From contig CADAZU010000007.1 in assembly GCA_902792535.1 (NCBI GenBank), positions 5,968 to 69,967 of the forward strand: 64,000 nucleotides of DNA. Direction: 5' to 3'. The first letter of the stretch is position 1. Each line of letters begins with the position of its first letter. Shown here in pieces: positions 38,111 to 49,630 of the stretch. A program made the position numbers and the translations under genes. Under the pieces are notes generated by a model. It searched no databases and was not told the DNA's origin. It saw nothing but the letters and a program-made list of their open reading frames with translations. The stretch comes from an uncultured Bacteroidales bacterium. Its GTDB lineage: Bacteria; Bacteroidota; Bacteroidia; Bacteroidales; Paludibacteraceae.

Positions 38111-41100
38111 TTATCGGAGCATAAACTTACCTCCTTTGGCGATCTTGCGGGTCTTAGAATCGAAGAAGACGTAGAAGTAAATATGCTCGGGTTTCGCCTG
38201 GAAGTAAGCACCTGCAGCCGAGGGCAGTGCGTCCACGAGAATCTGGTTTCCTTTCTCATCGATCTCTACCACCACGTCTGCCGGATCGGCGACAGGGATC
38301 TCCTGCAACATCAGCATATGTCCGTTGAGATCGTAGATACCCAATTGGATACCGATACCGATCGTGACACCTTTGTACTGGCCGTCTCCGGCATAGAGGA
38401 AGATATAGTCGTCCGTGTCCACCACAGCGGATGCAGCCCAGTTGGCATAGACGAAATTGAGGATATAGACGATGGTCGTACCATCCTGAGCGGTACAGTA
38501 TATCTCAACGCTCTTGCCATTCTCAATAACGGTCTCCATACCTGCTTCCCACGAAGCGAGCGTGTCCACCGGCACAGCCGTGATCTCCGGAATCTGGGCT
38601 CCCTGCGCAATGACGATGGTATAGGTGAGGGTGTCTCTATGATAGCCGCGTAATTCTTCGCCGTTCAGCCAGATCATATCCAGATGCGCTTCCGAGGAAA
38701 GCAGGATCGACTGGGAGATAGTATAAACGCCTATAGTACCATCCGGCGCGGTCACGAAGATCTGGAGCACGCCTTCGTCCATGGTGACACTCACCGTAGC
38801 GTTCGGATCTTGCGGGATAGCGGTGATTGCCGCAGCGGACAGCAATGCGGTTGAGTCAGTGCCGACCGGATAAACGATCTCGTATTCCTGTACGTCGGCA
38901 TCAAATCCGGCGATCGTCACGCCATTGACCTGCAGGTCTGCCAGATGCCAGTTGGAGGAAAGCAGATGAACGAAGGTAAGCGTATATTCGGAGGTAGTAG
39001 CACCGTCTCCGGCAGTAACGAGGATAGTGAGTTCCGTGTCGCCTACCCAAGTGGTGTCCACTTGCTGTTGTTCGTCCGCCGTCACCCATGTCACCACAGG
39101 CATTTCCGCTCCATAGAGCACCGCGTTCTGATAATTATATTCGGCAGGATCAAAGCCTTCCTGAAGTACTCCGTCAAGGAGAACAGCCGCCAAATCAGAG
39201 TTCTCCGAGGGCAGCCAAGTGAAGGAGAGGGTATAAGTCCGTGTTGTCACGCCATCCTCCGCTGTCACGGTAATGGTATTTCCGGAGACTGCTACCGTTG
39301 CCGCCGGATCTTCCGGCTCCGCTGTGATAGCCGGTGTCTGCGCACCAAACGGCAGAGCAATCGAATAGGACTCCTCGTCGGCATAGAAGGCATAGAGACC
39401 TATGCCGTCCAGCGCTATAGACGCCAGGTTGGCATTGGAGGATTTGGCTATTGTGAATACCACCGAATAGGTAGCGGTATGTACGCCGTCCTCGGCAGTC
39501 ACTACTATTGAAACGGTATTGCCGGTGCTCAGCACCTGCGCCGTGCTCTTGCTGTCCGAAAGAATATAATCCACCTTCGGCAGAGCATCAGTACCATGCG
39601 GCAGTTCTATATTATAGTTATACTTGTCCGGTTGGAAAGCGGGTACGGATTCATTGCCGACCATCAGGTCCGCCAGCGTACATACATCGGACGGAAGCAC
39701 ATCCACCTGAACCGTATAGGTATTCCGAGCCACGCCGTCCTCCGCCGTCACCACGAAGGTGACCGTAGCCGAAGAGCCGTTCTGCACCGTCGTCATTTCC
39801 GCTGTGGCTCCTTCGCATACCACTGCCGCCATAGCAGGTATAGCAGAGCCGGAAGGCAGAGAGAGGGTATAGCTAAACTGATCCGATTGGAATCCCGGGA
39901 TCGACACGCCATCCGCAGAGATTGAAGTGAGGTATGCCCCAGTAGCCGGCGTATGGAGGTGAACCAGCACGGAATAGCGGCTATGTGTTTTGCCATTCGC
40001 GGCAGTAGTCAGCACAAAGACCGCTACGTTTTCTTCGTCTATCCTAACCGTTGTATATTGCACATCCGCATCGGGATCTTGGGCTGTAGCCTCGAACTGG
40101 TCCAAAGATTCGAGCGTAACGGTATAGTCGTAGGTCTCCTCATAGAAGTCCGGCAGCGGCTCAGAGTTGGTGTTTATCGAAGCGAGAAGGGCATTGTCTG
40201 AAGGATGGCGGGCGATAATATAGGTAGTGTCTATTGCCGCTCCGCTACCAAATACATGGAGGTAATAGCAAGTATCGGTAGTCACCATTACAACGCTATC
40301 AAGGGCATATTCGCGGCTGTAGTTCACGATCGGCATCTCCTCCAGATTGACCAGACGGGCGGTGGACGATCCTATGATCGTATTCTCCGCAGGTACGTTG
40401 GTCACAGCGGCGGTGTTGACCGCGCTCTTCTCCCATGCCACATAATATACCTTTTGCGCTCCGCTCTCAGCCGTCACACCGATCACATACGCCGTGTCGT
40501 TGCGACCGATCACAACGGACTGGTAAGGCGAACCCTTGGTCACCGTCAGATCCATGCCATCGAGGGAATAAGTGATGGCAGTATTGGTCGATTTGGGACG
40601 GGTGACGGTCAGCGTATAGTCCGTATAAGAGAGGTTCTCAGCATAGTTGCGGATCGTCGCTGTGCGCACGCCGTTATTCTCCTCCGACCATGTCACAACC
40701 GGCATCTGGTCGGCTACTGCGTGTACGAACGCCAACGTAGGCGTTCCATAACTATCCGCGTCAATCGTAGCACTGATGTTCGTGCCGTCTATCGTTGCAG
40801 CCACGCCGTTCACATTCACGCCGGAAAGAACGGATGAATAGTTCAGACGCAGGTTATCGAAATACATAGAAGAGGTGAATCGGGCAGAAGAAGAAGCACC
40901 GGAAGAACTAATATAATAGTCCTCCAACACATCCGAATGGGCAGAACTAATCAATATATCCAATGTTACCGGTATATAATCCTCGGCATAAGTGATATTT
41001 CGCGAGAGTGTGCTCCATTGGTTCTTGGCCATGGTGTTAAATGCCTGCGAATAATTCACCTGTCTCATTCCATTCGCATTGTATATAAACCGCCAGCCGG

Positions 41101-44100
41101 TCACTTTGTTGTACGCCTGCAGGTTATAGTCGATCGCCACATTGTCCGGGGTGTTGCGGAAAGGAATGGGTTCTCCGAAAGCGAGGGAAGAGTGAATCTC
41201 ATATAGCCATAAAATCCATTTTCCAACCGACACCGTAGGCTGCGACAAGGACAAGAAGCCCGGCATGGACTCCGCCGAGGTCAGCAGCCATATCGTAGCA
41301 AGATTAGCCGCCAGGCTTCCTTCCGTATGTGTGGTGGTGGACTTAGCGGTATTCTCAGGATCATAGGTTCCCGCGTCACCGGAAGTGACGGCATTGATCG
41401 CCGAATACCAGCCGTTGGGGGCTTGACCGTCCGAATTGGTGTTGTCGTTATGATGGGATGTCCAGTTCTCAAATCCGAGATCAAAGGTAATGTCGCCCGG
41501 ATAATAATACGTCACCAAATAAGTGTGTTTGTATTCGCCTTCTTCACCTGCCTCCACAGTCAGTTTGACCCATTTCGCATTAGCATCCTTTTCCACTTCT
41601 GCATCGCTTTGCGCCGTGTAGGTCAATTCCGGCGTCTCGGCGACGGAAAGGACATAATTATACACATCGGGACGGAACTCCGGGATGGACACACCCGCCA
41701 CCTGAATATCCAACAATTGCGCCGGGTCGTACGGATAGACATTGGGCGTCAAGGTATATACCTTGTCTGCTTCGTTCGGGTCAAGCGATTTGACCGTGAT
41801 CACTGTGGGTTCCAATACGCCGCCACCGATAATCGTCACCTCTTGCTCCGGGTAGTTCTTCGCCACCGAGACGACCTCCATCGCGGTCGTGCCATAAGGC
41901 AGATTGATTGTGAAATCCGGTCCTTGGGTCATATCCAGCGCACCTATTCCGTCTAATACGATTGCCGTCAGTTCATTCGCCAAACCGGGCAATGCCACAG
42001 TATAAGAGAAGGAGTATGTAGCCTGCGTGCCGTCTTCGGCGGTCACAACGATCGTGGAGGGTTGACCTATAGGCGCTTCGGTGATTAGGAGCGACTGCTC
42101 CGGCTCTCCCTTTTCTACGGTCAATGCCGGCGACAGGGTCGTGCCGTAAGGGAGCATAATATCCGTATAGGTTTTTGTAGCCGGATCGAAGGAGAAGTTG
42201 ACTCCGTCAATCTCTACAGACGCCAGATCCGTGTTGCTCGATTTGGCAACCGGGAAATCAATGGTATAAGTCCGAGTGGTCGTTTTATCTTCCGCCAAGA
42301 CTTTGATTCGCGTAGGACGGTTGATACCTCCGTGCTCTACGGTGATCGTCTGGCCGGTTGTTGCTGCTACCGGCATGACTGCCGGCACTTGGTAGGTGCG
42401 CCATGGCAACGGATAGGTGTATGAGAGGGTCGCGGGGTCGAACGGATTGTATTTCTCGCCTCCTATGTACAACTCCGCCAGCGTTGCGTCCGACGAAGCA
42501 GGGAAGGAATCCATCGGGAAGGCAGGAATAACCACCTCTTCCGGCGAGTTGAGACGCACCGTATAAGTGTTCGGAGTACCCTCCTCCGGGGTCACCACGA
42601 TGCGCGCTGTACCGTAGGTAGAGGGCGAAACGATTGAGATTTTCTGTCCCTCATTTGCCAGAACGGTCACTTGGGGCATGGTGGCATTATTCCAAACCAG
42701 CGAATAGTCCAGCTGCTCGGGGGTAAAGCCCTCCAGCTCATTGCCGTTCAGATAGATCATTTGCAACAACGCATTCGCCGATTTCTCCACCTCGAATGCG
42801 ATCATATACACCCGCGTCGAGCCGTCGCCCGCCGTGACGGTCAGACGGACTGTCATTTGCGACTGGTTCACCGCCAAAGCCACCTGCTGGTAAGTATCTC
42901 CGGGTGTATAGGTTACCGTCGGCATGTTCTTTGTGCCAGCAGGCAAAGAGACGGTATAGTTCAGCGTGTCGGAGTGGAACGCCTCCATCGGTTCGCCATC
43001 CAACGCTATGCCGGCTAAGGCATTATTGGTCGATTTCTCGGTCTGGAAAAGCAGCCTATAGGTAGTCTTCGCGCCGCTTGCTGCGGTCACTACGATCCGC
43101 GTCGTGCCGTCCACGCCGCCTTCCGTCATCTCGACCGTCTGGTAGTTATCGCCCTTGGTGAAAGCGATCGCCGGCAGGGCAGTCGTGCCTAACGGCAGAG
43201 TGATGGTATAGAGCGTTTTCTCCGGAGCGAAGTCCGCTATCGGTTCGCCGTCCAGCGTGATACCCGCCAGATAGGAATAAGAAGACGCTTCTATTTTGTA
43301 TGTAATCTTATAGGTCTTGCTGAGCGTAGAGCCGGGTATGGAAACTTGGACTTGTGCGCCGGAGGCAAGGGTGTTGCTGAGCAATTGGATATTCTGCACT
43401 CCGTCCGGGTATGCCGACTGCCATGTGATCGCCGGAGCGTCTGTCGTGCCCAAAGGCAGCGAAACGGTATAGTTCGACTTGGTAGGTTGGAAGCCAGGCA
43501 GGAGCGAACCGTCGAGGTAGATCGCTTGCAGCGTCACGTCCGTCAATGGAGCTACCGAGAAATTGACCGTATAAGTCTGGGTCGTCGTACCGTCGCCTGC
43601 GGTCACAGAGACCGTAGCTGTTCCAGTGGTAGAAGTAGCCTGAGTGACCGAAACTGTTGCGGAGCCGTCCTGCGCAGAGGCGGTCACTTGCGGCACTTCG
43701 GTCGTGCCGTACGGCAGCGCTACGTTGTAATTCGTCAGATAAGCGTTGAAACCGTTCACCGTCTGACCGTTCACCTGCAGGTCTGCCAGACGGGCGTTGT
43801 TGCTCGCCTGCGAGACAAACTTGATCCGATAGGTGGTAGTAGTGCTACCATCCTCCGCCCGCACGGTAATGACGGTAGGCGCGCCGTCGACTTGACCATA
43901 CGTGATTGTACATTCCGCATCGGTCAAACGGCGTCCCGGGAAATTCGCTCTACCTCCACGTGTATTGGTCAATGAACCTGCTCCGCGGACACAAGTGATT
44001 GTTGGCATTTGTGTAACTCCCACACCTAATGAACATATCTGTTCGTCCGTATTATCGGGATCGAAGCCTTTCCACTCCTTGTTGGTCACGCCGTTGTTGA

Positions 44101-44971
44101 GGTATATCTTTTGCACCTTGCTGGAATAGATCAGCGAGATGTCGTCCACGTCCAGCGAAGATCCTGCATACTGTCCGCTATTAGCGCGGAAATCCGGATA
44201 GCGCCCCGCAGAGAGAATGACGTTGCATTTCTCCGGCACATCGTCATTGAAATAGTAGATCGGCACGGTGATCTTCGTCCAGTTGGGGTATGCTTTTTTC
44301 TCGTAATACCAACCTTCGGCAATCTGTTTGGCTTGTACGGCAGTACCGCACTCATTGCCGTCCAGAGCCTGACGAATATCGGATTCCTCATCAATGGTAT
44401 ATTCCGGATGCGATCCCGACACGTCGGTACAGGAGAGGTTCTTCGCCTTGAACGAAGAAGCACGCGAAGTACCGCTCCAGGCATAGTACAGCAGGTTGAA
44501 ATTCTCATCTGCGGTATGGTCACCCGCCGCATTGTCCACCGAACTATCATAGTACCGCTTGATCCATACGACCATCGAGTCCGGTCTGTTCGTCCAGCTA
44601 ATACCGCCATACGTGCCTGCCGTGGCATCTTCAATCGATGTGAGGCTCGATACATACGCCCATGGGTGTCCCAACGAGACATACCCCGGAGAAGTGGCCC
44701 CAATGCCCAACGCTCCGACAAACTGGTCCTGGATCTTGAGCGCGGAGCCGGACCTACCCGTCGTCTTATGGGCGAAATTGAATTCTACTTTCAACTGGCT
44801 TACATTGGAGAAATTCCAGTATTTAGGCTGCGCCGAACTTTTGAACTGGGCACCCGACCAGTCCTCAAACCCAGGATCGGGGAACTGAAAATTATCCGCA
44901 CTAACAGCCAAAGGAATTGCCATCCATGCGAAACAGAATAATAAAAGCTTAAAGAATTTACTCATATTCAT
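38111..44971 (-). CDS. Giant (2286 aa) secreted surface protein: signal peptide, PCMD-like domain, ~10 cadherin-like beta-sandwich repeats, second PCMD-like domain, ~10 more repeats, T9SS-like C-terminal tail
   Basis: Signal peptide MNMSKFFKLLLFCFAWMAIPLAVSA. PCMD-like N-termini DNFQFPDPGFEDWSG (aa ~26-282; 44126..44896) and ITFDLGFENWTSH (aa ~1158-1378; 40838..41500). About 80-88-aa repeats of the type L..L.V.G..I.GF.P....Y.V.LPYGT...P.VTA.......V.V......T.I.VTAEDG.T..TY.+.F. The C-terminal ~80 aa (IYDLNGHMLMLQEI...FMLR) resembles a Por/T9SS sorting domain. Confidence 0.85.
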   Translation of the reverse strand: MNMSKFFKLLLFCFAWMAIPLAVSADNFQFPDPGFEDWSGAQFKSSAQPKYWNFSNVSQLKVEFNFAHKTTGRSGSALKIQDQFVGALGIGATSPGYVSLGHPWAYVSSLTSIEDATAGTYGGISWTNRPDSMVVWIKRYYDSSVDNAAGDHTADENFNLLYYAWSGTSRASSFKAKNLSCTDVSGSHPEYTIDEESDIRQALDGNECGTAVQAKQIAEGWYYEKKAYPNWTKITVPIYYFNDDVPEKCNVILSAGRYPDFRANSGQYAGSSLDVDDISLIYSSKVQKIYLNNGVTNKEWKGFDPDNTDEQICSLGVGVTQMPTITCVRGAGSLTNTRGGRANFPGRRLTDAECTITYGQVDGAPTVITVRAEDGSTTTTYRIKFVSQASNNARLADLQVNGQTVNGFNAYLTNYNVALPYGTTEVPQVTASAQDGSATVSVTQATSTTGTATVSVTAGDGTTTQTYTVNFSVAPLTDVTLQAIYLDGSLLPGFQPTKSNYTVSLPLGTTDAPAITWQSAYPDGVQNIQLLSNTLASGAQVQVSIPGSTLSKTYKITYKIEASSYSYLAGITLDGEPIADFAPEKTLYTITLPLGTTALPAIAFTKGDNYQTVEMTEGGVDGTTRIVVTAASGAKTTYRLLFQTEKSTNNALAGIALDGEPMEAFHSDTLNYTVSLPAGTKNMPTVTYTPGDTYQQVALAVNQSQMTVRLTVTAGDGSTRVYMIAFEVEKSANALLQMIYLNGNELEGFTPEQLDYSLVWNNATMPQVTVLANEGQKISIVSPSTYGTARIVVTPEEGTPNTYTVRLNSPEEVVIPAFPMDSFPASSDATLAELYIGGEKYNPFDPATLSYTYPLPWRTYQVPAVMPVAATTGQTITVEHGGINRPTRIKVLAEDKTTTRTYTIDFPVAKSSNTDLASVEIDGVNFSFDPATKTYTDIMLPYGTTLSPALTVEKGEPEQSLLITEAPIGQPSTIVVTAEDGTQATYSFSYTVALPGLANELTAIVLDGIGALDMTQGPDFTINLPYGTTAMEVVSVAKNYPEQEVTIIGGGVLEPTVITVKSLDPNEADKVYTLTPNVYPYDPAQLLDIQVAGVSIPEFRPDVYNYVLSVAETPELTYTAQSDAEVEKDANAKWVKLTVEAGEEGEYKHTYLVTYYYPGDITFDLGFENWTSHHNDNTNSDGQAPNGWYSAINAVTSGDAGTYDPENTAKSTTTHTEGSLAANLATIWLLTSAESMPGFLSLSQPTVSVGKWILWLYEIHSSLAFGEPIPFRNTPDNVAIDYNLQAYNKVTGWRFIYNANGMRQVNYSQAFNTMAKNQWSTLSRNITYAEDYIPVTLDILISSAHSDVLEDYYISSSGASSSARFTSSMYFDNLRLNYSSVLSGVNVNGVAATIDGTNISATIDADSYGTPTLAFVHAVADQMPVVTWSEENNGVRTATIRNYAENLSYTDYTLTVTRPKSTNTAITYSLDGMDLTVTKGSPYQSVVIGRNDTAYVIGVTAESGAQKVYYVAWEKSAVNTAAVTNVPAENTIIGSSTARLVNLEEMPIVNYSREYALDSVVMVTTDTCYYLHVFGSGAAIDTTYIIARHPSDNALLASINTNSEPLPDFYEETYDYTVTLESLDQFEATAQDPDADVQYTTVRIDEENVAVFVLTTAANGKTHSRYSVLVHLHTPATGAYLTSISADGVSIPGFQSDQFSYTLSLPSGSAIPAMAAVVCEGATAEMTTVQNGSSATVTFVVTAEDGVARNTYTVQVDVLPSDVCTLADLMVGNESVPAFQPDKYNYNIELPHGTDALPKVDYILSDSKSTAQVLSTGNTVSIVVTAEDGVHTATYSVVFTIAKSSNANLASIALDGIGLYAFYADEESYSIALPFGAQTPAITAEPEDPAATVAVSGNTITVTAEDGVTTRTYTLSFTWLPSENSDLAAVLLDGVLQEGFDPAEYNYQNAVLYGAEMPVVTWVTADEQQQVDTTWVGDTELTILVTAGDGATTSEYTLTFVHLLSSNWHLADLQVNGVTIAGFDADVQEYEIVYPVGTDSTALLSAAAITAIPQDPNATVSVTMDEGVLQIFVTAPDGTIGVYTISQSILLSSEAHLDMIWLNGEELRGYHRDTLTYTIVIAQGAQIPEITAVPVDTLASWEAGMETVIENGKSVEIYCTAQDGTTIVYILNFVYANWAASAVVDTDDYIFLYAGDGQYKGVTIGIGIQLGIYDLNGHMLMLQEIPVADPADVVVEIDEKGNQILVDALPSAAGAYFQAKPEHIYFYVFFDSKTRKIAKGGKFMLR

Positions 44972-45029: not shown

Positions 45030-45061
45030 CAAAATTACTGCTTTTTTGTCAAGCGGACAAT
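45030..45061 (-). promoter_or_regulatory. Promoter (aTTG-N20-TAatTTTG) for the giant surface-protein gene
   Basis: The -7 box is the reverse complement of 45030..45037, about 59 nt upstream of the ATG at 44971. The -33 is weak. Confidence 0.5.
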
Positions 45062-45093: not shown

Positions 45094-45117
45094 AGCCCCG
45101 CTCATAAGAGCGAGGCT
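45094..45117 (-). terminator. Candidate terminator hairpin after the radical SAM operon
   Basis: AGCCCCGCTC-ATAA-GAGCGAGGCT (10-bp stem, one mismatch). On the minus-strand RNA an A/U-rich tract with a U6 run follows about 13 nt later. Confidence 0.4.
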
Positions 45118-45169: not shown

Positions 45170-46246
45170 TTATTGCCCGACCCGATGGAGGTGGCAAAGC
45201 ATGAGCGAACCGTCTTCGCGTCGAAGGTGCATGCCGTTTCCTTCGCAGAAGGTCCAGGCTTTGCAGTCCTTGCAAGGTTCGGACTGCTTCATCCATGTGC
45301 GATCGCGGTAAGGTTTGAAGCCGTGCTCCCAGACAGACCAGAAGGAATCGCGGTATATATTCCCTTGGTAATACTTGCCGCGGATGGAGGTGCACGCAGA
45401 GATAGAGCCGTCAATGAGGATAGACGCAATTGAGATCCCTGCTGCACATTGGTAGAGGTGGTCGCGGACACGCCCTTCGTAAGTGCCGAGATAGCCTTCG
45501 CAGGAATAAGAGACATGACGCCCGGCCTCGCGTTCGGAGACGATAAAATCCATGAGGTATCGGAACTGCTCGTCGGTCAGTAGGAGTTCGGGATTGGAGG
45601 CAGCGCGTCCCATCGGGTCAATGCCAAAGACACGCCAGTCTCGCACGCCGAGCGACCAGAGCATATCGCGGATCTCGGGCAAGTGGTCTATCGTGCGCTG
45701 GTTAACGCAGGTGACGACATCGAAAGCGAGGGAGGGAGTAGAAGCATTGTGGTCAATTATCAATTTAATGGCGCGAGTGGCACCTTCGAAAGCAAGCGGG
45801 TGTTGGCGAAGCCAGATGTGGTCTTTTTCGAGTCCGTCGCAAGAGACCGTAATAGAACGGAGTCCGGCGGAGACGAGTTCGTCGAAGCGCTCTTGGGTGA
45901 GTGCCAAGCCGTTTGTGACCATTCCCCAAGGGTAGCCGCGCGATTTAAGAGCCCGTCCTATGTCGGCGAGGTCTTTGCGCATGAGTGGTTCGCCGCCGGA
46001 AATGATGATTAAAACTTCGTGGGGATTGACATGCGGAGTAACCTCCGTGTCTATGACATGGAGAAAATCTTCGGCAGGCATATCGGGTGTCTCGACCGAG
46101 GCGATGCAATCGCTGCCGCAATGGAGGCAATGGACATTACAACGGAGCGTGGACTCCCAAAAGAGCTGGCGAAGAGGGTGCAGTTCCTTGAGGTTTCGCC
46201 TCCTCAGGCTTTCGAGCCACAAGGCTATTTTCAGACGCATTTTCAC
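45170..46246 (-). CDS. Radical SAM enzyme with C-terminal SPASM/twitch-like auxiliary Fe-S domain
   Basis: CNVHCLHC (CX3CX2C) at 46118..46141, verified codon by codon. GGEPLM. C-terminal CAAGISIASILIDGSISAC (CX12GX4C) and CKDCKAWTFC (CX2CX5C) plus a further Cys. The start is GTG 46246 (GTGA overlap with the upstream stop) or ATG 46240. Confidence 0.9.
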   Translation of the reverse strand: MKMRLKIALWLESLRRRNLKELHPLRQLFWESTLRCNVHCLHCGSDCIASVETPDMPAEDFLHVIDTEVTPHVNPHEVLIIISGGEPLMRKDLADIGRALKSRGYPWGMVTNGLALTQERFDELVSAGLRSITVSCDGLEKDHIWLRQHPLAFEGATRAIKLIIDHNASTPSLAFDVVTCVNQRTIDHLPEIRDMLWSLGVRDWRVFGIDPMGRAASNPELLLTDEQFRYLMDFIVSEREAGRHVSYSCEGYLGTYEGRVRDHLYQCAAGISIASILIDGSISACTSIRGKYYQGNIYRDSFWSVWEHGFKPYRDRTWMKQSEPCKDCKAWTFCEGNGMHLRREDGSLMLCHLHRVGQ

Positions 46247-46452
46247 AGGTTTTCCTCCACGATAGATGTCGATGGTACTTCTTGTTGCACTTGTTCAGGT
46301 ACCGGAATTCCATACTCCGGTACAGGGCCATAGAGCACTTGCGGATCATCCGGCACTCCGTATTTTTGCATAGGTTCACAAGCCGCGAAGCCGAGAGCAC
46401 TTAACAACATGACGATTAGCGCATTAGCGCGGGTTAAGATTTTCTTTTTCAT
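46243..46452 (-). CDS. 69-aa lipoprotein-like peptide P1 with three YG.P motifs (candidate radical SAM substrate)
   Basis: MKKKILTRANALIVMLLSALGFAAC|EPMQKYGVPDDPQVLYGPVPEYGIPVPEQVQQEVPSTSIVEENL. Has a lipobox. ATGA overlap with the upstream gene. Clear paralog of P2. Confidence 0.7.
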   Translation of the reverse strand: MKKKILTRANALIVMLLSALGFAACEPMQKYGVPDDPQVLYGPVPEYGIPVPEQVQQEVPSTSIVEENL

Positions 46453-46922
46453 AATTCAAAATTAACTGTGGCATAGCCGTTATACGGTATTTTTTGATTT
46501 TGTACCAAAGCGGTGTCATAGGTAACGGGAGCAAAGATATACTGCTGGGGATATAGACCGGTTGAATCGGTCGCTACAACAGTTATTTCCGTAGGCACTT
46601 CGCGTCCGCGGTATCGGATAATCGTATATCGTCCGAGCGAGTCCGTGATCGAATAATTATAGGTCAGGATATCCGGTTCGTTCGGTTCACGTACGCCGGG
46701 CAGAGAGACATATATTCCGCTGAGCGGCTGGGATGCCGTATTGGTAACCGTGCCGTTTACAATCAGGCGGGGGCTCGCAGAAGTATAATGTCCTGCTGAC
46801 TCCGTTTCGCCCGGATTCACGATCCATACACCGCCATCTACATCCGTCGGAGAGTTCGCTTTACATCCGGCAAAACCGCTGCATAACGCAATTAAAAACA
46901 ATATGTATATATTCTTTCTCAT
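46449..46922 (-). CDS. Lipoprotein with carboxypeptidase-regulatory-like beta-sandwich domain
   Basis: 157 aa with lipobox ...SGFAGC. IVNGTVTNTASQPLSGIYVSL...ITDSLGRYTI fits a CarboxypepD_reg-like fold. ATGA overlaps at both ends. Confidence 0.65.
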   Translation of the reverse strand: MRKNIYILFLIALCSGFAGCKANSPTDVDGGVWIVNPGETESAGHYTSASPRLIVNGTVTNTASQPLSGIYVSLPGVREPNEPDILTYNYSITDSLGRYTIIRYRGREVPTEITVVATDSTGLYPQQYIFAPVTYDTALVQNQKIPYNGYATVNFEL

Positions 46923-47443
46923 GGCCGTTTGAAAAATTTATACGTTGTAGGACCCAATGTTGTCTCGACACGCAGAAAATAATACCCCGGCGGTAATTGA
47001 CTGATATCCACGTTTCGGTCACTGGCGAACATCAGATGCCCGTTCCAATCGGCCACAATGATTCGCCTTACCCATAGAGAACCGGTAAAATCGGTTTTCC
47101 AGCAACCTATCCGGATGGAATAAAGACCTGTGTGTGTAATCGGGCAAGAGATCTCACCGTAACTGAGTCCGTAGAAATAGTCCTCGTTGTTGCGGTTGCT
47201 TTGCTCCTCCTGTATTACGACATAGGACACGGCTTCTTTCTGCGTTTGGATGAAGAGGGTGTTGCCGGATAGCGACGCCCGGAACTGGTTCGGGTCAGTA
47301 GGATCCGGTGTACTGCCGGTCGGTCCGTCCATCGGCATATAGGCAAAGACCGACATTTTCAGCGGTATAGAGATCGTGTCATTCGCCCGAATGGAGAAAG
47401 AGACGAAGCAAAGGAACACTATGAAAATGAGACGTTTAGGCAT
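46919..47443 (-). CDS. DUF3244-like secreted protein with T9SS-like C-terminal tail
   Basis: Start set to the ATG at 47443 (MPKRLIFIVFLCFVSFSIRA). ...FRASLSGNTLFIQTQKEAVSYVVIQEE...GLYSIRIG...FTGSLWV resembles the DUF3244 pattern. The C-terminus ...VDISQLPPGYYFLRVETTLGPTTYKFFKRP resembles a Por sorting domain. Confidence 0.55.
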   Translation of the reverse strand: MPKRLIFIVFLCFVSFSIRANDTISIPLKMSVFAYMPMDGPTGSTPDPTDPNQFRASLSGNTLFIQTQKEAVSYVVIQEEQSNRNNEDYFYGLSYGEISCPITHTGLYSIRIGCWKTDFTGSLWVRRIIVADWNGHLMFASDRNVDISQLPPGYYFLRVETTLGPTTYKFFKRP

Positions 47444-48695
47444 GGCTGTTGGCGATCGATCGTAAGGTATCTTGCAGCTGTTTGGCACTCACACCAAGCC
47501 GTTTGGCGATGAGGTATTTGTCTTTTCCGATGCCGTTCTCTGCGCGGAAGAGGATCTGCGCCATTTCGGCATAGGAGAAGCCGATGAGGACGAGGACACA
47601 GATGCGGATGTCGCGCTCCGGGAGTCCTCTCTGCTCCAGTTTGGAGACGATGCCAAACAGCAGTTTGTTGCAGATCACAGAGAATTGGCGGTAGTCGTTC
47701 CATTGGAGCTCCGAGCGGATGTCCGGCGATTGGCGGAGGAGACGGCATTGGGCGTCCAGCGCGTTCTTGCGGCGGCTGGAACGGAGATAGAGCCATGCGG
47801 CAAGAGCCAAAAGAAGCAGTATTGCTGTAGCAATAAGCGCGAAGAGGGTTTGGGGTTTCAGAGGCGGCGAATAAGGCTGAAGGGCTTGCTGCGCAAGGAG
47901 CATGGCTTCTATCCATTCGGGGTTGTTGCGTTCCAGCGAACGCTGGATGTCCGCCCTTGCGGACGCCAAGTCGCGGATGTCGTCTGCCGCTGCCGTTGAG
48001 TCACAATGGGTGAGGATATAACAGGCATCGTCCAGATAGCGAGGATTGTCCGTTTCGGCGAGGACTTGGCGGGCATAGAAGAGCGCGGAGTCCTTGTGGT
48101 TCAGGAAGGTATATGCCTGCGCGCGGAGGATGGCAAAATAGGGAGAGGAGTTTTGGGCGAAGTCGAGCGCGGACGTTGGGGCGGAGTCGAGCGCGGGCTT
48201 TGGGGCGGTATAAAAGAGGACGGAGTCGTATTCGGCGGCATAGAGACAAGCGGCGGCGCGAGATTCGAGGACTTTGGTCTGTACGGCTTCGGAGGACGAG
48301 ATGGCAAGGGCTGAGTCGAGAAGTTGAAAGGCGGTTTGTTTGTCCGCAAGGACTGCTTTTTCCCACGCCATATTGTTGAGCGCGAAGGCTTGCGCGAGGG
48401 AGTCTTTTGCGGCTACGAACTGATTGAGGGATTGGCGGTAGAGATCGAAGGCGAGTTCGTGCTGTTCGCCTATCCGGCACATGGTAGCCATGTTGCTGTA
48501 CGAACGTCCTTTGACGGCAAACTCCTCGGACGGAACACGCACGGCGGAGAGAAAAGCCTGCATGGCTTCGACCGGCTGACCGGCTTCGCGGGCTTGTTTG
48601 CCTTGGAGATAATACGACTCGGCTGTCGGCGAAGCACAAGCCACCGACAGCAGGAGAAAGAGAGAGAGGAATCCTATTTGACGATGCGCGCGCAT
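47436..48695 (-). CDS. Membrane-spanning regulator: lipoprotein-type signal, periplasmic TPR-like domain, one TM helix, cytoplasmic LuxR/HTH-like domain
   Basis: 419 aa. ...LLLSVAC signal, TPR-like helices, TM LFALIATAILLLLALAAWLYL. C-terminus ...LPERDIRICVLVLIGFSYAEMAQILFRAENGIGKDKYLIAKRLGV.... Same topology as the SusR-like protein at 9513..11057. Confidence 0.65.
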   Translation of the reverse strand: MRAHRQIGFLSLFLLLSVACASPTAESYYLQGKQAREAGQPVEAMQAFLSAVRVPSEEFAVKGRSYSNMATMCRIGEQHELAFDLYRQSLNQFVAAKDSLAQAFALNNMAWEKAVLADKQTAFQLLDSALAISSSEAVQTKVLESRAAACLYAAEYDSVLFYTAPKPALDSAPTSALDFAQNSSPYFAILRAQAYTFLNHKDSALFYARQVLAETDNPRYLDDACYILTHCDSTAAADDIRDLASARADIQRSLERNNPEWIEAMLLAQQALQPYSPPLKPQTLFALIATAILLLLALAAWLYLRSSRRKNALDAQCRLLRQSPDIRSELQWNDYRQFSVICNKLLFGIVSKLEQRGLPERDIRICVLVLIGFSYAEMAQILFRAENGIGKDKYLIAKRLGVSAKQLQDTLRSIANSHA

Positions 48696-48880
48696 CAGTC
48701 GTTCACCGGCGATTGAGGGGTCTCTACGACCTCCTCGGGGGTCGGGATACCGTACATCGGCATAGGAGGATCGGGAGAGCCGTACTTAACCAAGGGTTCC
48801 TTGCAACCGCTGAGTCCCAGCAGGGACAGGATTGCCGCGCCCAAGAAGGCGTTTGTGCGAGTTAAAAGTTTCTTTCTCAT
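48695..48880 (-). CDS. 61-aa lipoprotein-like peptide P2 with YG.P motifs (paralog of P1)
   Basis: MRKKLLTRTNAFLGAAILSLLGLSGC|KEPLVKYGSPDPPMPMYGIPTPEEVVETPQSPVND. ATGA overlap with P3 and a 1-nt TGATG overlap with the regulator gene. Confidence 0.65.
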   Translation of the reverse strand: MRKKLLTRTNAFLGAAILSLLGLSGCKEPLVKYGSPDPPMPMYGIPTPEEVVETPQSPVND

Positions 48881-49086
48881 AATGATTCATTATTATCGGA
48901 TGTGTCGTTTGCAACGGAACGGAGTTGCTGCTCCATTTTCTGCTGGTCTTTTTGGAAGTCCGGTTCGTTCTGCCAATATCTTTCCGACGGCGCCGGTCCA
49001 TAGCAGGCAGCGAAGGTGAATGCCACGCCGGTAAGCAGGCAGAGTTTGATGCCGAGTCGGAGGAATGTGTCAATCAGTTTGCGCAT
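48877..49086 (-). CDS. 69-aa lipoprotein-like peptide P3
   Basis: Start set to the ATG at 49086, downstream of the promoter. MRKLIDTFLRLGIKLCLLTGVAFTFAAC|YGPAPSERYWQNEPDFQKDQQKMEQQLRSVANDTSDNNESL. Confidence 0.55.
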   Translation of the reverse strand: MRKLIDTFLRLGIKLCLLTGVAFTFAACYGPAPSERYWQNEPDFQKDQQKMEQQLRSVANDTSDNNESL

Positions 49087-49112
49087 AATGTCGGGTGTTT
49101 TGAAATCCGGTG

Positions 49113-49144
49113 CAAAGGTAGTGCTTTTTAAAGATATATGCAAA
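49113..49144 (-). promoter_or_regulatory. Canonical promoter (TTTG-N20-TAccTTTG) for the P3-P2-regulator-...-radical SAM operon
   Basis: The -7 box is the reverse complement of 49113..49120. The -33 is the reverse complement of 49141..49144. It shares the extended -33 word AATTTGCATATATC with the promoter at 49840..49871, and shares AATTTGCATATAT with the nadC promoter. Confidence 0.65.
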
Positions 49145-49201: not shown

Positions 49202-49630
49202 TCAAAGGGTTGGGGGCTCTTTGCGGAGGATGGCACGGATGAAATTATCTATGCGGGCATAGATGGTGTAAGTGCCGTCCTTGGCGCGTGGAGCGATGGG
49301 GTCAGGAGTACCTTTAAGTTGGGCATTGAAGCGAGCCACGTAAGAGTCCAGGAGTGCCTGTTTCTGAGGCGTCAGGGGTGTTTTGTTTCTAAGTGCGTCG
49401 ATGAACTCTTGCGCCAGATGGGAGGCTTGTCCGAAAGCGGTTTGATTCGCTCTTTCGCGCGTCAGGACAGGGTTCGCTTTGTAGTTACGGGGTCGCGGGG
49501 TGTACGCCTCAAGACGTCCCACTTTCGCCACCGTGCCATCAAAATTGTAGAAGGTTTTGCGGCGCTCGACGAGTCCACCTCGGGCACCTCTGATTTCCTC
49601 AATGTCGGGAGTGTGTTTAATTCTAGCCAT
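49202..49630 (-). CDS. Hypothetical basic 142-aa protein
   Basis: MARIKHTPDIEEIRGARGG.... No signal peptide and no family recognised. It is the only long ORF in its interval and lies downstream of two candidate promoters. Confidence 0.5.
   Translation of the reverse strand: MARIKHTPDIEEIRGARGGLVERRKTFYNFDGTVAKVGRLEAYTPRPRNYKANPVLTRERANQTAFGQASHLAQEFIDALRNKTPLTPQKQALLDSYVARFNAQLKGTPDPIAPRAKDGTYTIYARIDNFIRAILRKEPPTL

Follow-up and report, generated by a model that had tools for sequence, protein, structure and literature searches.

The stretch of DNA analysed here (the window, 64,000 nucleotides of contig CADAZU010000007.1, GenBank assembly GCA_902792535.1) derives from an uncultured rumen Bacteroidales bacterium of the family Paludibacteraceae and carries, at 45170..49086 of its minus strand, an operon of seven open reading frames (ORFs) that overlap or abut one another. 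In the direction of transcription, the operon encodes the small protein P3 (48877..49086, 69 amino acids), a second small protein P2 (48695..48880, 61 amino acids), a 419-amino-acid protein with tetratricopeptide repeat (TPR), transmembrane and putative helix-turn-helix (HTH) parts (47436..48695), a 174-amino-acid secreted protein with a borderline match to the C-terminal sorting domain of type IX secretion systems (T9SS; 46919..47443), a 157-amino-acid lipoprotein (46449..46922), P1, of which P2 is a paralog (46243..46452, 69 amino acids), and a radical SAM/SPASM enzyme. The gene of the enzyme occupies either 45170..46240 with an ATG start (356 amino acids) or 45170..46246 with a GTG start (358 amino acids). 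Stop and start codons overlap as ATGA at 48877-80, 46919-22 and 46449-52, a TGATG junction lies at 48695, and eight nucleotides (nt) are shared at 47436-43. P1 and the enzyme gene are joined by GTGA at 46243-46, or separated by a 2-nt gap if ATG at 46240 is the start codon; since homologs of the enzyme begin with M-x-L-R-L-K, GTG at 46246, with an overlap of 4 nt, is the more likely start. The ORF list and the sequence agree with an earlier note on this DNA as to the seven ORFs, their coordinates and their junctions.

Ahead of P3, an exact match to the Bacteroidetes-type promoter pattern TTTG-N20-TAnnTTTG is located at 49113..49144 of the minus strand. The window holds nine such sites, compared with 0.52 expected by chance, and a pattern scan of the window found none between 45170 and 49112; the element TAnnTTTG occurs alone, without the -33 element, at 46539 and 46464. 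After the enzyme gene, a hairpin with a 10-bp stem (45094..45117, minus strand) folds with a minimum free energy of -19.2 kcal/mol (z = -4.2; none of 200 shuffled sequences folds equally well). It was missed by a simple terminator scan because no U-run directly adjoins the stem, and it is probably the end of the transcription unit, though not a canonical stem-plus-U-run terminator. A scan for sigma-70 promoters and terminators gave counts at chance level, uninformative for Bacteroidetes, and was abandoned for the TTTG/TAnnTTTG pattern and direct folding. Promoter and hairpin had both been proposed in the earlier note and both stand. As read from the sequence, a single predicted promoter drives a translationally coupled operon.

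The last gene of the operon encodes a full member of the NCBIfam family TIGR04133, the enzyme family of the 'rSAM/lipoprotein system'. Its product scores 517.7 bits against this model (cut-off 425, E = 1.3e-155) over residues 2-354 of 356, which bears out the family suggested in the earlier note. The next NCBIfam families (nif11-class maturase 3, GDL-motif maturase, AhbD, NirJ2, MftC, PqqE and others) reach at most 110 bits against cut-offs of 265-725; the best partial scores are 110 bits for TIGR04103 and 109 bits for TIGR03913 (nif11-class maturase 3 and GDL-motif maturase). Models of anaerobic sulfatase-maturating enzymes (anSMEs) are absent from the best 25 NCBIfam matches. Because the other families score so far below their cut-offs, the enzyme is placed outside the anSMEs and every characterised clade, clustering with which the earlier note had named as an observation that would speak against its proposal. 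Pfam recognises a Radical_SAM domain (PF04055, 56 bits) and a SPASM domain (PF13186, 29.9 bits, cut-off 21.5), and the nearest solved structures by sequence are BlsE (E = 6e-12), MoaA and PqqE (E = 6e-7).

The cysteine motifs of the enzyme are at the positions given in the earlier note: the radical SAM triad CX3CX2C (C34/C38/C41) at 46118..46141, and in the SPASM region CX12GX4C (C265..C283), CX2CX5C (C323/C326/C332) and further C247 and C349, the SPASM cysteines C247-C349 spanning 45194..45502, all on the minus strand. These cluster cysteines are invariant in 46 homologs and kept in a homolog of 54% identity. An additional invariant cysteine, Cys45, follows right after the triad (CNVHCLHCGSDC) and extends it to CX3CX2CX3C (46106..46141), and the SPASM motif reads CX2CX5C-EGN-G, so that the usual fourth cysteine of CX2CX5CX3C is absent (G336); both peculiarities recur in the 54%-identical homolog (locus L081) and may be relevant to mechanism. 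Only 33 residues, strongly conserved in homologs, precede the triad. They leave no room for an N-terminal RiPP recognition element (RRE; RiPP, ribosomally synthesised and post-translationally modified peptide), as the earlier note had argued, and Pfam and NCBIfam scans revealed no RRE/PqqD-like domain in any of the seven operon proteins. The ratio of nonsynonymous to synonymous substitution rates (dN/dS) of the enzyme is 0.04-0.06. An AlphaFold2 (AF2) model built with 46 close homologs has a mean predicted local distance difference test (pLDDT) score of 61, with the SPASM part below 50 and the residues before the triad modelled as two helices; a fold search of the PDB with this model returned generic radical SAM cores only (viperin, PqqE, BlsE, SkfB, SuiB, CteB, MoaA and anSME; template modelling (TM) scores 0.37-0.46).

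Relatives of the enzyme were sought in one genome per GTDB species. Matches to the query were obtained in at least 572 genomes at the species level and in thousands of clusters formed at 90% identity; the best 80 of 572 confirmed relatives were compared as loci. Their enzymes are 70-98% identical to that of the window, and nearly all of them bear the label of Paludibacteraceae or of metagenome-assembled genomes (MAGs) of uncultured Bacteroidales, largely from the gut of ruminants and other animals. A P1- or P3-like gene lies no more than 130 nt from the gene of the enzyme in 54 of the 78 loci whose flanks are long enough; counting the whole of the flanks, 65 of the 80 loci possess one. A hidden Markov model (HMM) of P1-type peptides gave 68 matches in 1.04 Mb, all of them upstream of the enzyme gene and on the same strand. 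ORF clustering found no other family of at least 110 amino acids within 4 kb in more than 20 of the 80 loci, the most frequent being the body lipoprotein related to the 157-amino-acid protein (20), a cadherin-like giant protein (19), a 5'-nucleotidase-like lipoprotein (16), the TPR-HTH protein (15) and the protein with the T9SS-type tail (14). P1- and P3-like genes are the sole consistent neighbours of the enzyme.

The complete operon is not conserved in the same way. The earlier note had presented the seven genes as one system whose order might extend across Bacteroidales, and this had to be given up: the exact order occurs in none of the 80 loci, and the trio of TPR-HTH protein, T9-tail protein and body lipoprotein in about 15-20 of them. 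Even the closest genomes (L001 and L002, 98% enzyme identity) have no P1, and a minimal form composed of a P3-like gene, a P1-like gene and the enzyme gene is found in L005, L008 and L009. The pairing is also seen from the side of the peptides: the short peptides P0155, P0177 and P0174 each overlap the following gene, which encodes Radical_SAM and SPASM domains, by 4 nt, and it persists at greater distance, where the peptide P0237 and two paralogs follow an enzyme 54% identical to that of the window.

P1 consists of a conserved signal with Asn10, the lipobox FAAC (46378..46389) and the motifs KYGVP (46351..46365), LYGPVP (46318..46335) and EYGIP (46303..46317). P2 has the lipobox LSGC (48803..48814) followed by KYGSP (48773..48787) and MYGIP (48743..48757), and in P3 a lipoprotein-type signal ending in FAAC is followed by YGPAP (C28-P33, 48988..49005) and an acidic tail; all these features lie on the minus strand. 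Within the window, the P1-type HMM recognises P1 (E = 2e-9) and P2 (E = 1e-6) and the P3 HMM recognises P3 (E = 4e-34), while none of the three has an above-threshold match in Pfam or NCBIfam. P1 is 80-87% identical in L007 and L011, and P2 90-93% identical in L001 and L002. With dN/dS of 0.13-0.29 for P1, 0.23-0.38 for P2 and 0.11-0.44 for P3, the three are genuine genes under purifying selection, and their homologs in dozens of species answer the concern, raised in the earlier note, that they might not be conserved. Public databases contain P1 clusters at 93-97% identity. Where members of the P1-like set bear a name, it is 'hypothetical protein' or, in one case, 'starvation-inducible outer membrane lipoprotein'; a Pfam domain is found in none of them. 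The P3 family, with 22 matches among the closest loci, is characterised by a nearly invariant N-terminal segment, IKLC.LTGVAFTFAACY.PAP, in which the signal-like part runs into C-Y-[G/A]-P-A-P.

In the alignments of the P1 type (A1 and A4), the lipobox Cys is invariant, and Asn10 is invariant in A1 and nearly so in A4. The lipobox of relatives is mostly LAGC, and their N-terminus combines a start rich in Lys and Arg with a hydrophobic stretch. Judged by the pattern [LVI][ASTVI][GAS]C after a positively charged N-terminus and a hydrophobic stretch, P1, P2 and P3 are predicted bacterial lipoproteins of the Lgt/LspA pathway type.

The mature part of the 162 non-identical short family members has a mean length of 70 residues and contains much Pro, Glu and Val. 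At least two YG dipeptides are present in 158 of the 162, Y-G-X being repeated two to five times per peptide. Three quarters (75%) of the Tyr residues of the mature region are located in YG, 13 times the expectation from composition, and Pro follows at position +3 in 82%. The consensus is [I/P/V]-[M/V]-[V/A/C]-[K/L]-Y-G-[V/P/I]-P, with the core [KL]-Y-G-[VPI]-P; the third residue of Y-G-X is V, P, I, A, T or occasionally G. Besides the lipobox Cys, YG.P is the sole conserved feature of the mature part of the short peptides. When a family profile was compared with a 1.84 billion-protein library of 50%-identity representatives, 395 family members were found, fused forms of the type described below included. 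Among 134 newly recovered representatives, 132 contain YG. Of the 134, 73 are short and 61 longer, mostly with a fused body, and in some the body is followed by one more YG. Lipopeptides composed of the head alone, and likewise the P3 family, are widespread and captured by no existing model; their description is new here.

The partner model of the same system, TIGR04134 (cut-off 39.8 bits), had been taken by the earlier note for the model of the tiny peptides, and in this respect the note was mistaken. P2 and P3 do not match it, and P1 reaches 12.1 bits over profile positions 2-36 only; the model describes a protein of about 150 amino acids in which a head and a body are fused. Proteins of this length beside the enzyme in the relatives L013 and L029 match the whole of TIGR04134 (96 and 87 bits) and are composed of a P1-like head and a beta-sandwich body. 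The fused head carries the signal 'MK.K.L.R.NA.I..LLG.LGF..C', then KYG.P and EYG.P, and in all full-length TIGR04134-type proteins retrieved YG is found shortly after the lipobox Cys. P1 and P2, with their conserved signal including Asn10, their lipobox and two to three YG.P motifs, match these full-length members, and in the relative P0305 a P3-type head is placed on the same body. The 157-amino-acid lipoprotein corresponds to profile positions 29-112 (24.2 bits, below 39.8); it has an ordinary lipobox of its own and no YG motif, and aligns with the fused family members. From these alignments, the window appears to contain the TIGR04134 architecture split into a head, encoded by the stand-alone gene of P1 (with its paralog P2), and a body, the 157-amino-acid lipoprotein. 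The conserved element of the partner is the head with its YG tether, not the body, a view that is new here; the YG tether as hallmark of the family is our deduction from alignments, not part of a published definition.

In an AF2 model of one fused relative (pLDDT 82.6), the signal helix comprises residues 9-22 and the sandwich begins at residue 46, with a prealbumin/carboxypeptidase-regulatory-like fold. Both YG motifs precede the fold, in a stretch without regular structure: the first belongs to a flexible part of low confidence, and the second abuts strand 1. According to this confident model, the YG motifs lie in a flexible tether between signal helix and body, where they could be within reach of an enzyme. 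Further family architectures were noticed among P0366, P0385, P0398, P0399, P0402, P0412, P0435 and P0233, including head-body-tail forms with an extra C-terminal (I/V)KYG.P. P0435 is a tandem duplication with PEYGMPHA ahead of each body, and P0233 joins a P1-type head to an unrelated C-terminal domain that, by eye, resembles the start of a TonB-dependent-receptor plug.

We propose, with moderate confidence, that the operon is a split variant of the 'rSAM/lipoprotein system', in which the enzyme would modify the YG motifs of pre-lipoproteins before their export. The cytoplasmic radical SAM/SPASM enzyme would recognise the pre-lipoproteins P1, P2 and probably P3, plausibly through the unusually conserved signal-peptide region and/or the motif, since it has no RRE domain. 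The Tyr-Gly core of the repeated [K/L]-Y-G-[V/P/I]-P would then be modified. After export through Sec, the product would receive its lipid at the invariant Cys of the lipobox and be cut by signal peptidase II, giving short, Pro/Glu-rich modified lipopeptides tethered to a membrane. Such a general Sec/Lsp route fits because no protease or transporter is encoded nearby: Pfam and NCBIfam revealed no leader protease or exporter in the operon, and no such family is conserved across the 80 loci. Conserved adjacency, a conserved lipobox Cys and a conserved YG motif are all to be expected if the peptides are substrates. By analogy with three-residue cyclophanes, the enzyme may, with low confidence, introduce a cross-link or an oxidation centred on the Tyr of Y-G-X; epimerisation or attack at the C-alpha of Gly are further possibilities. 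The same enzyme would probably also serve YG-headed lipoproteins encoded elsewhere in the genome, and the TPR-transmembrane-LuxR-type protein, the T9SS-tail-like protein and the body lipoprotein would form an accessory cassette of one subclade.

Several observations weigh against this proposal. In about 13 of the 78 enzyme loci, no peptide could be recognised within 7 kb. Conversely, the fused lipoproteins P0295, P0284 and P0301 have no radical SAM gene within 3 kb, the first two being encoded inside V-type ATPase operons and the third beside rpsL/rpsG, and the short peptide P0203 is present at a syntenic site without an enzyme gene. The P3 family often has YAP in place of YGP. The HMMs were built from ORFs upstream of the enzyme with a seed filter that required Asn, so that part of the apparent invariance comes from selection of the seeds. 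The second YG of fused proteins is possibly partly structural, because it adjoins the first beta-strand, and because the lipoprotein of the window, which lacks YG, retains the Tyr at this place ('HYTSAS'). The best partial similarities of the enzyme include the small-molecule and tetrapyrrole enzymes BlsE, AhbD, NirJ and MoaA, and the enzyme model was used for no conclusion on cluster ligation or peptide binding because its pLDDT is too poor. Finally, the modification itself is deduced from sequence patterns and its chemistry is a guess.

The distribution of the partners bears on what kind of system this would be. The occurrence of some fused YG-lipoproteins far from any enzyme gene suggests that one enzyme has several substrates, and a preferred adjacent substrate accompanied by dispersed ones fits better than a closed RiPP cluster. 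Compared with the proposal of the earlier note, the arrangement looks less like that of a RiPP: protease, exporter and RRE were not found, and fused YG-lipoproteins are dispersed. Two details of these loci may be added. The V-type ATPase operons with P0295 (L087, 3001..3423) and P0284 (L092, 3001..3438) have the order subunit A, lipoprotein (overlapping the gene of A by 4 nt), a protein of about 800 amino acids, subunit B. L091 (3001..3249) and L098 (2501..3852) agree in their synteny: the gene of a 5'-nucleotidase-like lipoprotein is followed by that of a YG peptide, and Peptidase_S66 is encoded on the other strand. L091 has no radical SAM gene, its peptidase gene call runs into the 3' end of the peptide, and the enzyme gene has apparently been lost there while the peptide was kept.

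The strongest alternative to modification of the YG motif, which we consider unlikely though by no means negligible, is that the enzyme acts on a small molecule, a cofactor, a lipid or another protein, and that the YG lipoproteins are linked partners such as receptors, carriers or a product-binding module. Its nearest solved relative, BlsE, is a nucleoside decarboxylase and MoaA comes next, the strong partial HMM matches include AhbD, NirJ and AhbC, and both the lack of a recognisable RRE and the separate occurrence of enzyme loci and fused lipoproteins noted above also speak for it. However, the top partial matches are peptide maturases (nif11-class maturase 3 and GDL-motif maturase), the enzyme has a full SPASM domain, and no small-molecule biosynthetic genes are conserved nearby in the 80 loci. 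Tight coupling by 4 nt, and a short repeated motif whose conservation far exceeds that of the remaining peptide, would be expected of a substrate relationship.

It is also conceivable, but improbable, that other machinery uses YG as a structural, sorting or processing element, for instance as a rigid Pro-rich tether or as a site of sorting or proteolysis, and that the enzyme modifies another residue, such as one around the lipobox Cys. The motif does lie in the tether adjoining the lipid anchor, 12% of motifs have Cys at position -2, and fused forms commonly show 'EYGCP'; moreover, the SPASM domain without its usual fourth Cys (G336) may leave an open iron site, comparable to that of CteB, which binds a substrate Cys. 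Against this stands the fact that Cys near the motif is not conserved, whereas YG.P is the one mature feature which the short peptides keep in addition to the lipobox Cys.

Slightly less probable still is that P1, P2 and P3 are classical leader-core RiPP precursors whose hydrophobic N-terminus is a leader and whose product is free and non-lipidated. Repeated motifs occur in some radical SAM RiPPs, and the N-terminus is more conserved than the mature part (Asn10 in the P1 type, IKLC.LTGVAFTFAAC in P3), which is unusual for signal peptides and typical of leaders. Nevertheless, this N-terminus has every feature of a lipoprotein signal, from the Lys/Arg-rich start and hydrophobic stretch to the L-A-G-C-type lipobox and invariant Cys; no leader protease or ATP-binding cassette exporter was found nearby; and roughly half of the family members carry this head fused to a beta-sandwich fold of about 110 amino acids, which argues for a protein anchor, not a cleaved leader. 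The reading of the small ORFs as chance ORFs or an annotation artefact, to which their length of 61-69 amino acids without a Pfam or NCBIfam match might lend colour, was rejected as refuted by the comparative data: dN/dS of 0.11-0.44, in-frame homologs in dozens of species, 395 50%-identity representatives matching the family profile, and start and stop codons that overlap those of neighbouring genes.

If the YG motifs are modified as we propose, this would be a new type of radical SAM chemistry on lipoproteins, a recognition mode independent of the RRE, and a maturation step acting on proteins of the cell envelope in abundant anaerobes of the gut. The TIGR04133 enzymes form a large family in gut and rumen Bacteroidales, and the question of their function is now narrowed to a target that can be synthesised, [K/L]-Y-G-[V/P/I]-P in a short tether adjoining the lipid anchor; P1 and P2 offer minimal natural candidate substrates of 40-70 residues beside their enzyme. 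A bolder idea, possible in our view but quite tentative, is that P1, P2, P3 and about 400 representatives at 50% identity constitute a new class of ribosomal product: lipopeptides that would be modified by a radical SAM enzyme, lipidated and displayed on the envelope, recognised via the Sec/signal peptidase II signal region and not via an RRE-bound leader, while the same enzyme would mature the dispersed YG-tethered lipoproteins, those of V-type ATPase operons included. In that case, no radical SAM modification specific to bacterial lipoproteins would have preceded it, and the chemistry at Tyr or Gly might itself be new.

The accessory genes deserve a shorter description. Scanned alone, the 419-amino-acid protein matches TPR_12 (34.4 bits, cut-off 30.1); it has a signal- or lipobox-like N-terminus and one transmembrane helix (47784..47846). 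As Pfam gave only a weak HTH_10 match for its C-terminus (13.9 bits, E = 0.05), profile comparison was used, and the segment 47481..47624 aligned with GerE (hhalign probability 87.5%, E = 3.6e-6, with a GerE sequence entered by hand). The protein is a candidate accessory regulator with a LuxR/GerE-like HTH. Among the labels of the earlier note, its TPR part is thus confirmed, and its HTH part is supported by the profile comparison with GerE only. The 174-amino-acid protein stays just below threshold for Por_Secre_tail (21.6 bits versus 23 in NCBIfam, 17.7 versus 27 in Pfam), so the T9SS-type tail of the note is borderline, and the DUF3244 label had to be rejected, no match being found even at E = 10. 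For the 157-amino-acid lipoprotein, the CarboxypepD_reg-like label fails in the window protein itself (17.7 bits versus a cut-off of 32.3) and is supported through its relatives and their predicted fold. The TPR-HTH protein occurs in about 15-18 of the 80 loci and the 174-amino-acid protein in about 14, always between the TPR-HTH protein and the body lipoprotein. Because this regulator cassette is confined to a subclade, the signalling function suggested in the earlier note, which depends on the accessory regulator, is optional and not part of the core of the system.

The operon is a mosaic. By synonymous divergence (dS), the enzyme, the TPR-HTH protein, P2 and P3 are nearest to L001 and L002 (0.05-0.29), the body lipoprotein of which is 39% identical to that of the window; the 157-amino-acid lipoprotein and P1 are nearest to L010 and L011 (0.34-0.41), and the enzyme of L011 is at dS 1.6 from that of the window. 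GC content is 0.476 in P1, 0.473 in the 157-amino-acid lipoprotein and 0.491 in the T9-tail protein, versus 0.555 in the enzyme and 0.573 in the TPR protein. The pattern of dS and GC suggests cassette exchange of the substrate segment (46243..47443). On sequence evidence, the window is a split, mosaic variant with a regulator cassette, which is likewise new here. In the MAG RUG14367, two TIGR04133 paralogs (L013 and L025, 87% and 85% identical to the window enzyme) are located on separate contigs and differ in the arrangement of their partners: L025 has the TPR/T9-tail/body cassette downstream and a P3-like ORF on the opposite strand.

Directly downstream of the enzyme gene, 38111..44971 of the minus strand encodes a protein of 2286 amino acids with Cadherin-like beta-sandwich repeats (PF12733), preceded by a -7-type motif TAnnTTTG at 45037. 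In 19 of the 80 loci, the peptide-less L003 and L050 included, a homolog likewise follows the enzyme gene; the synteny looks conserved, and the gene is probably transcribed as a unit of its own. Directly upstream of the operon promoter, a 142-amino-acid ORF without a Pfam match ('MARIKHTPDIEE...', 49202..49630, minus strand) belongs to a family present in 11 of the 80 loci, which also precedes the minimal operon of P3, P1 and enzyme in L005 and L008.

The system is not categorically new, because it has already been catalogued computationally as TIGR04133/TIGR04134, hypothetical equivalogs of NCBIfam/TIGRFAMs defined by co-occurrence only. The enzyme of the window is full-length and above the cut-off, relatives of the same clade carry a true TIGR04134 lipoprotein beside it, and public annotations already bear these names. 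The window differs in that head and body are split, with neither at the cut-off, and in the presence of the accessory regulator cassette. Full-text searches of the literature found nothing on TIGR04133/TIGR04134 or on lipoproteins modified by radical SAM enzymes; the sole mention of 'TIGR04134' found is a mis-citation for the type B C-terminal domain of the T9SS, and a paper on RiPP mining in Bacteroidales makes no mention of lipoproteins.

Among characterised enzymes, the RiPP maturases with radical SAM and SPASM domains (nif11-class maturase 3, GDL-motif maturase, PqqE, MftC, CteB, SuiB) share this architecture and give the best partial HMM similarity. Their scores are, however, far under the cut-offs, no N-terminal RRE, leader protease or exporter was found here, and the partners are pre-lipoproteins, half of them fused to a folded domain. 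The three-residue cyclophane-forming enzymes (3-CyFE) of the triceptides offer a functional analogy only: they are SPASM enzymes that act on repeated three-residue motifs beginning with an aromatic residue, with which the Y-G-X pattern is compatible. The window enzyme lies outside these families as judged by its best 25 HMM matches, the third position, where triceptides typically have a polar residue, is taken by V, P, I, A, T or occasionally G, and a lipoprotein signal stands in place of the leader, with no RRE found.

QhpD is a SPASM enzyme that installs cross-links in a small exported protein before translocation, and the cross-links in QhpC are thioethers from Cys to Asp or Glu. P1-type peptides differ in that their only conserved Cys is that of the lipobox, and the similarity of the enzyme to QhpD is not above the generic SPASM level. 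The anSMEs, RRE-less SPASM enzymes too, modify a short motif of secreted proteins in the cytoplasm before Sec export and have several substrates, some of them distant. The window enzyme is not a member by sequence, has a generic fold match (TM score about 0.42-0.45) and a SPASM domain without the fourth Cys of the CX3C, and the C/S-x-P-x-R motif of anSME substrates is absent from P1, P2 and P3; what it shares with anSME is the presence of dispersed candidate substrates (P0295, P0284, P0301). As a whole, the arrangement resembles that of a maturase with several dispersed protein substrates, such as anSME or QhpD.

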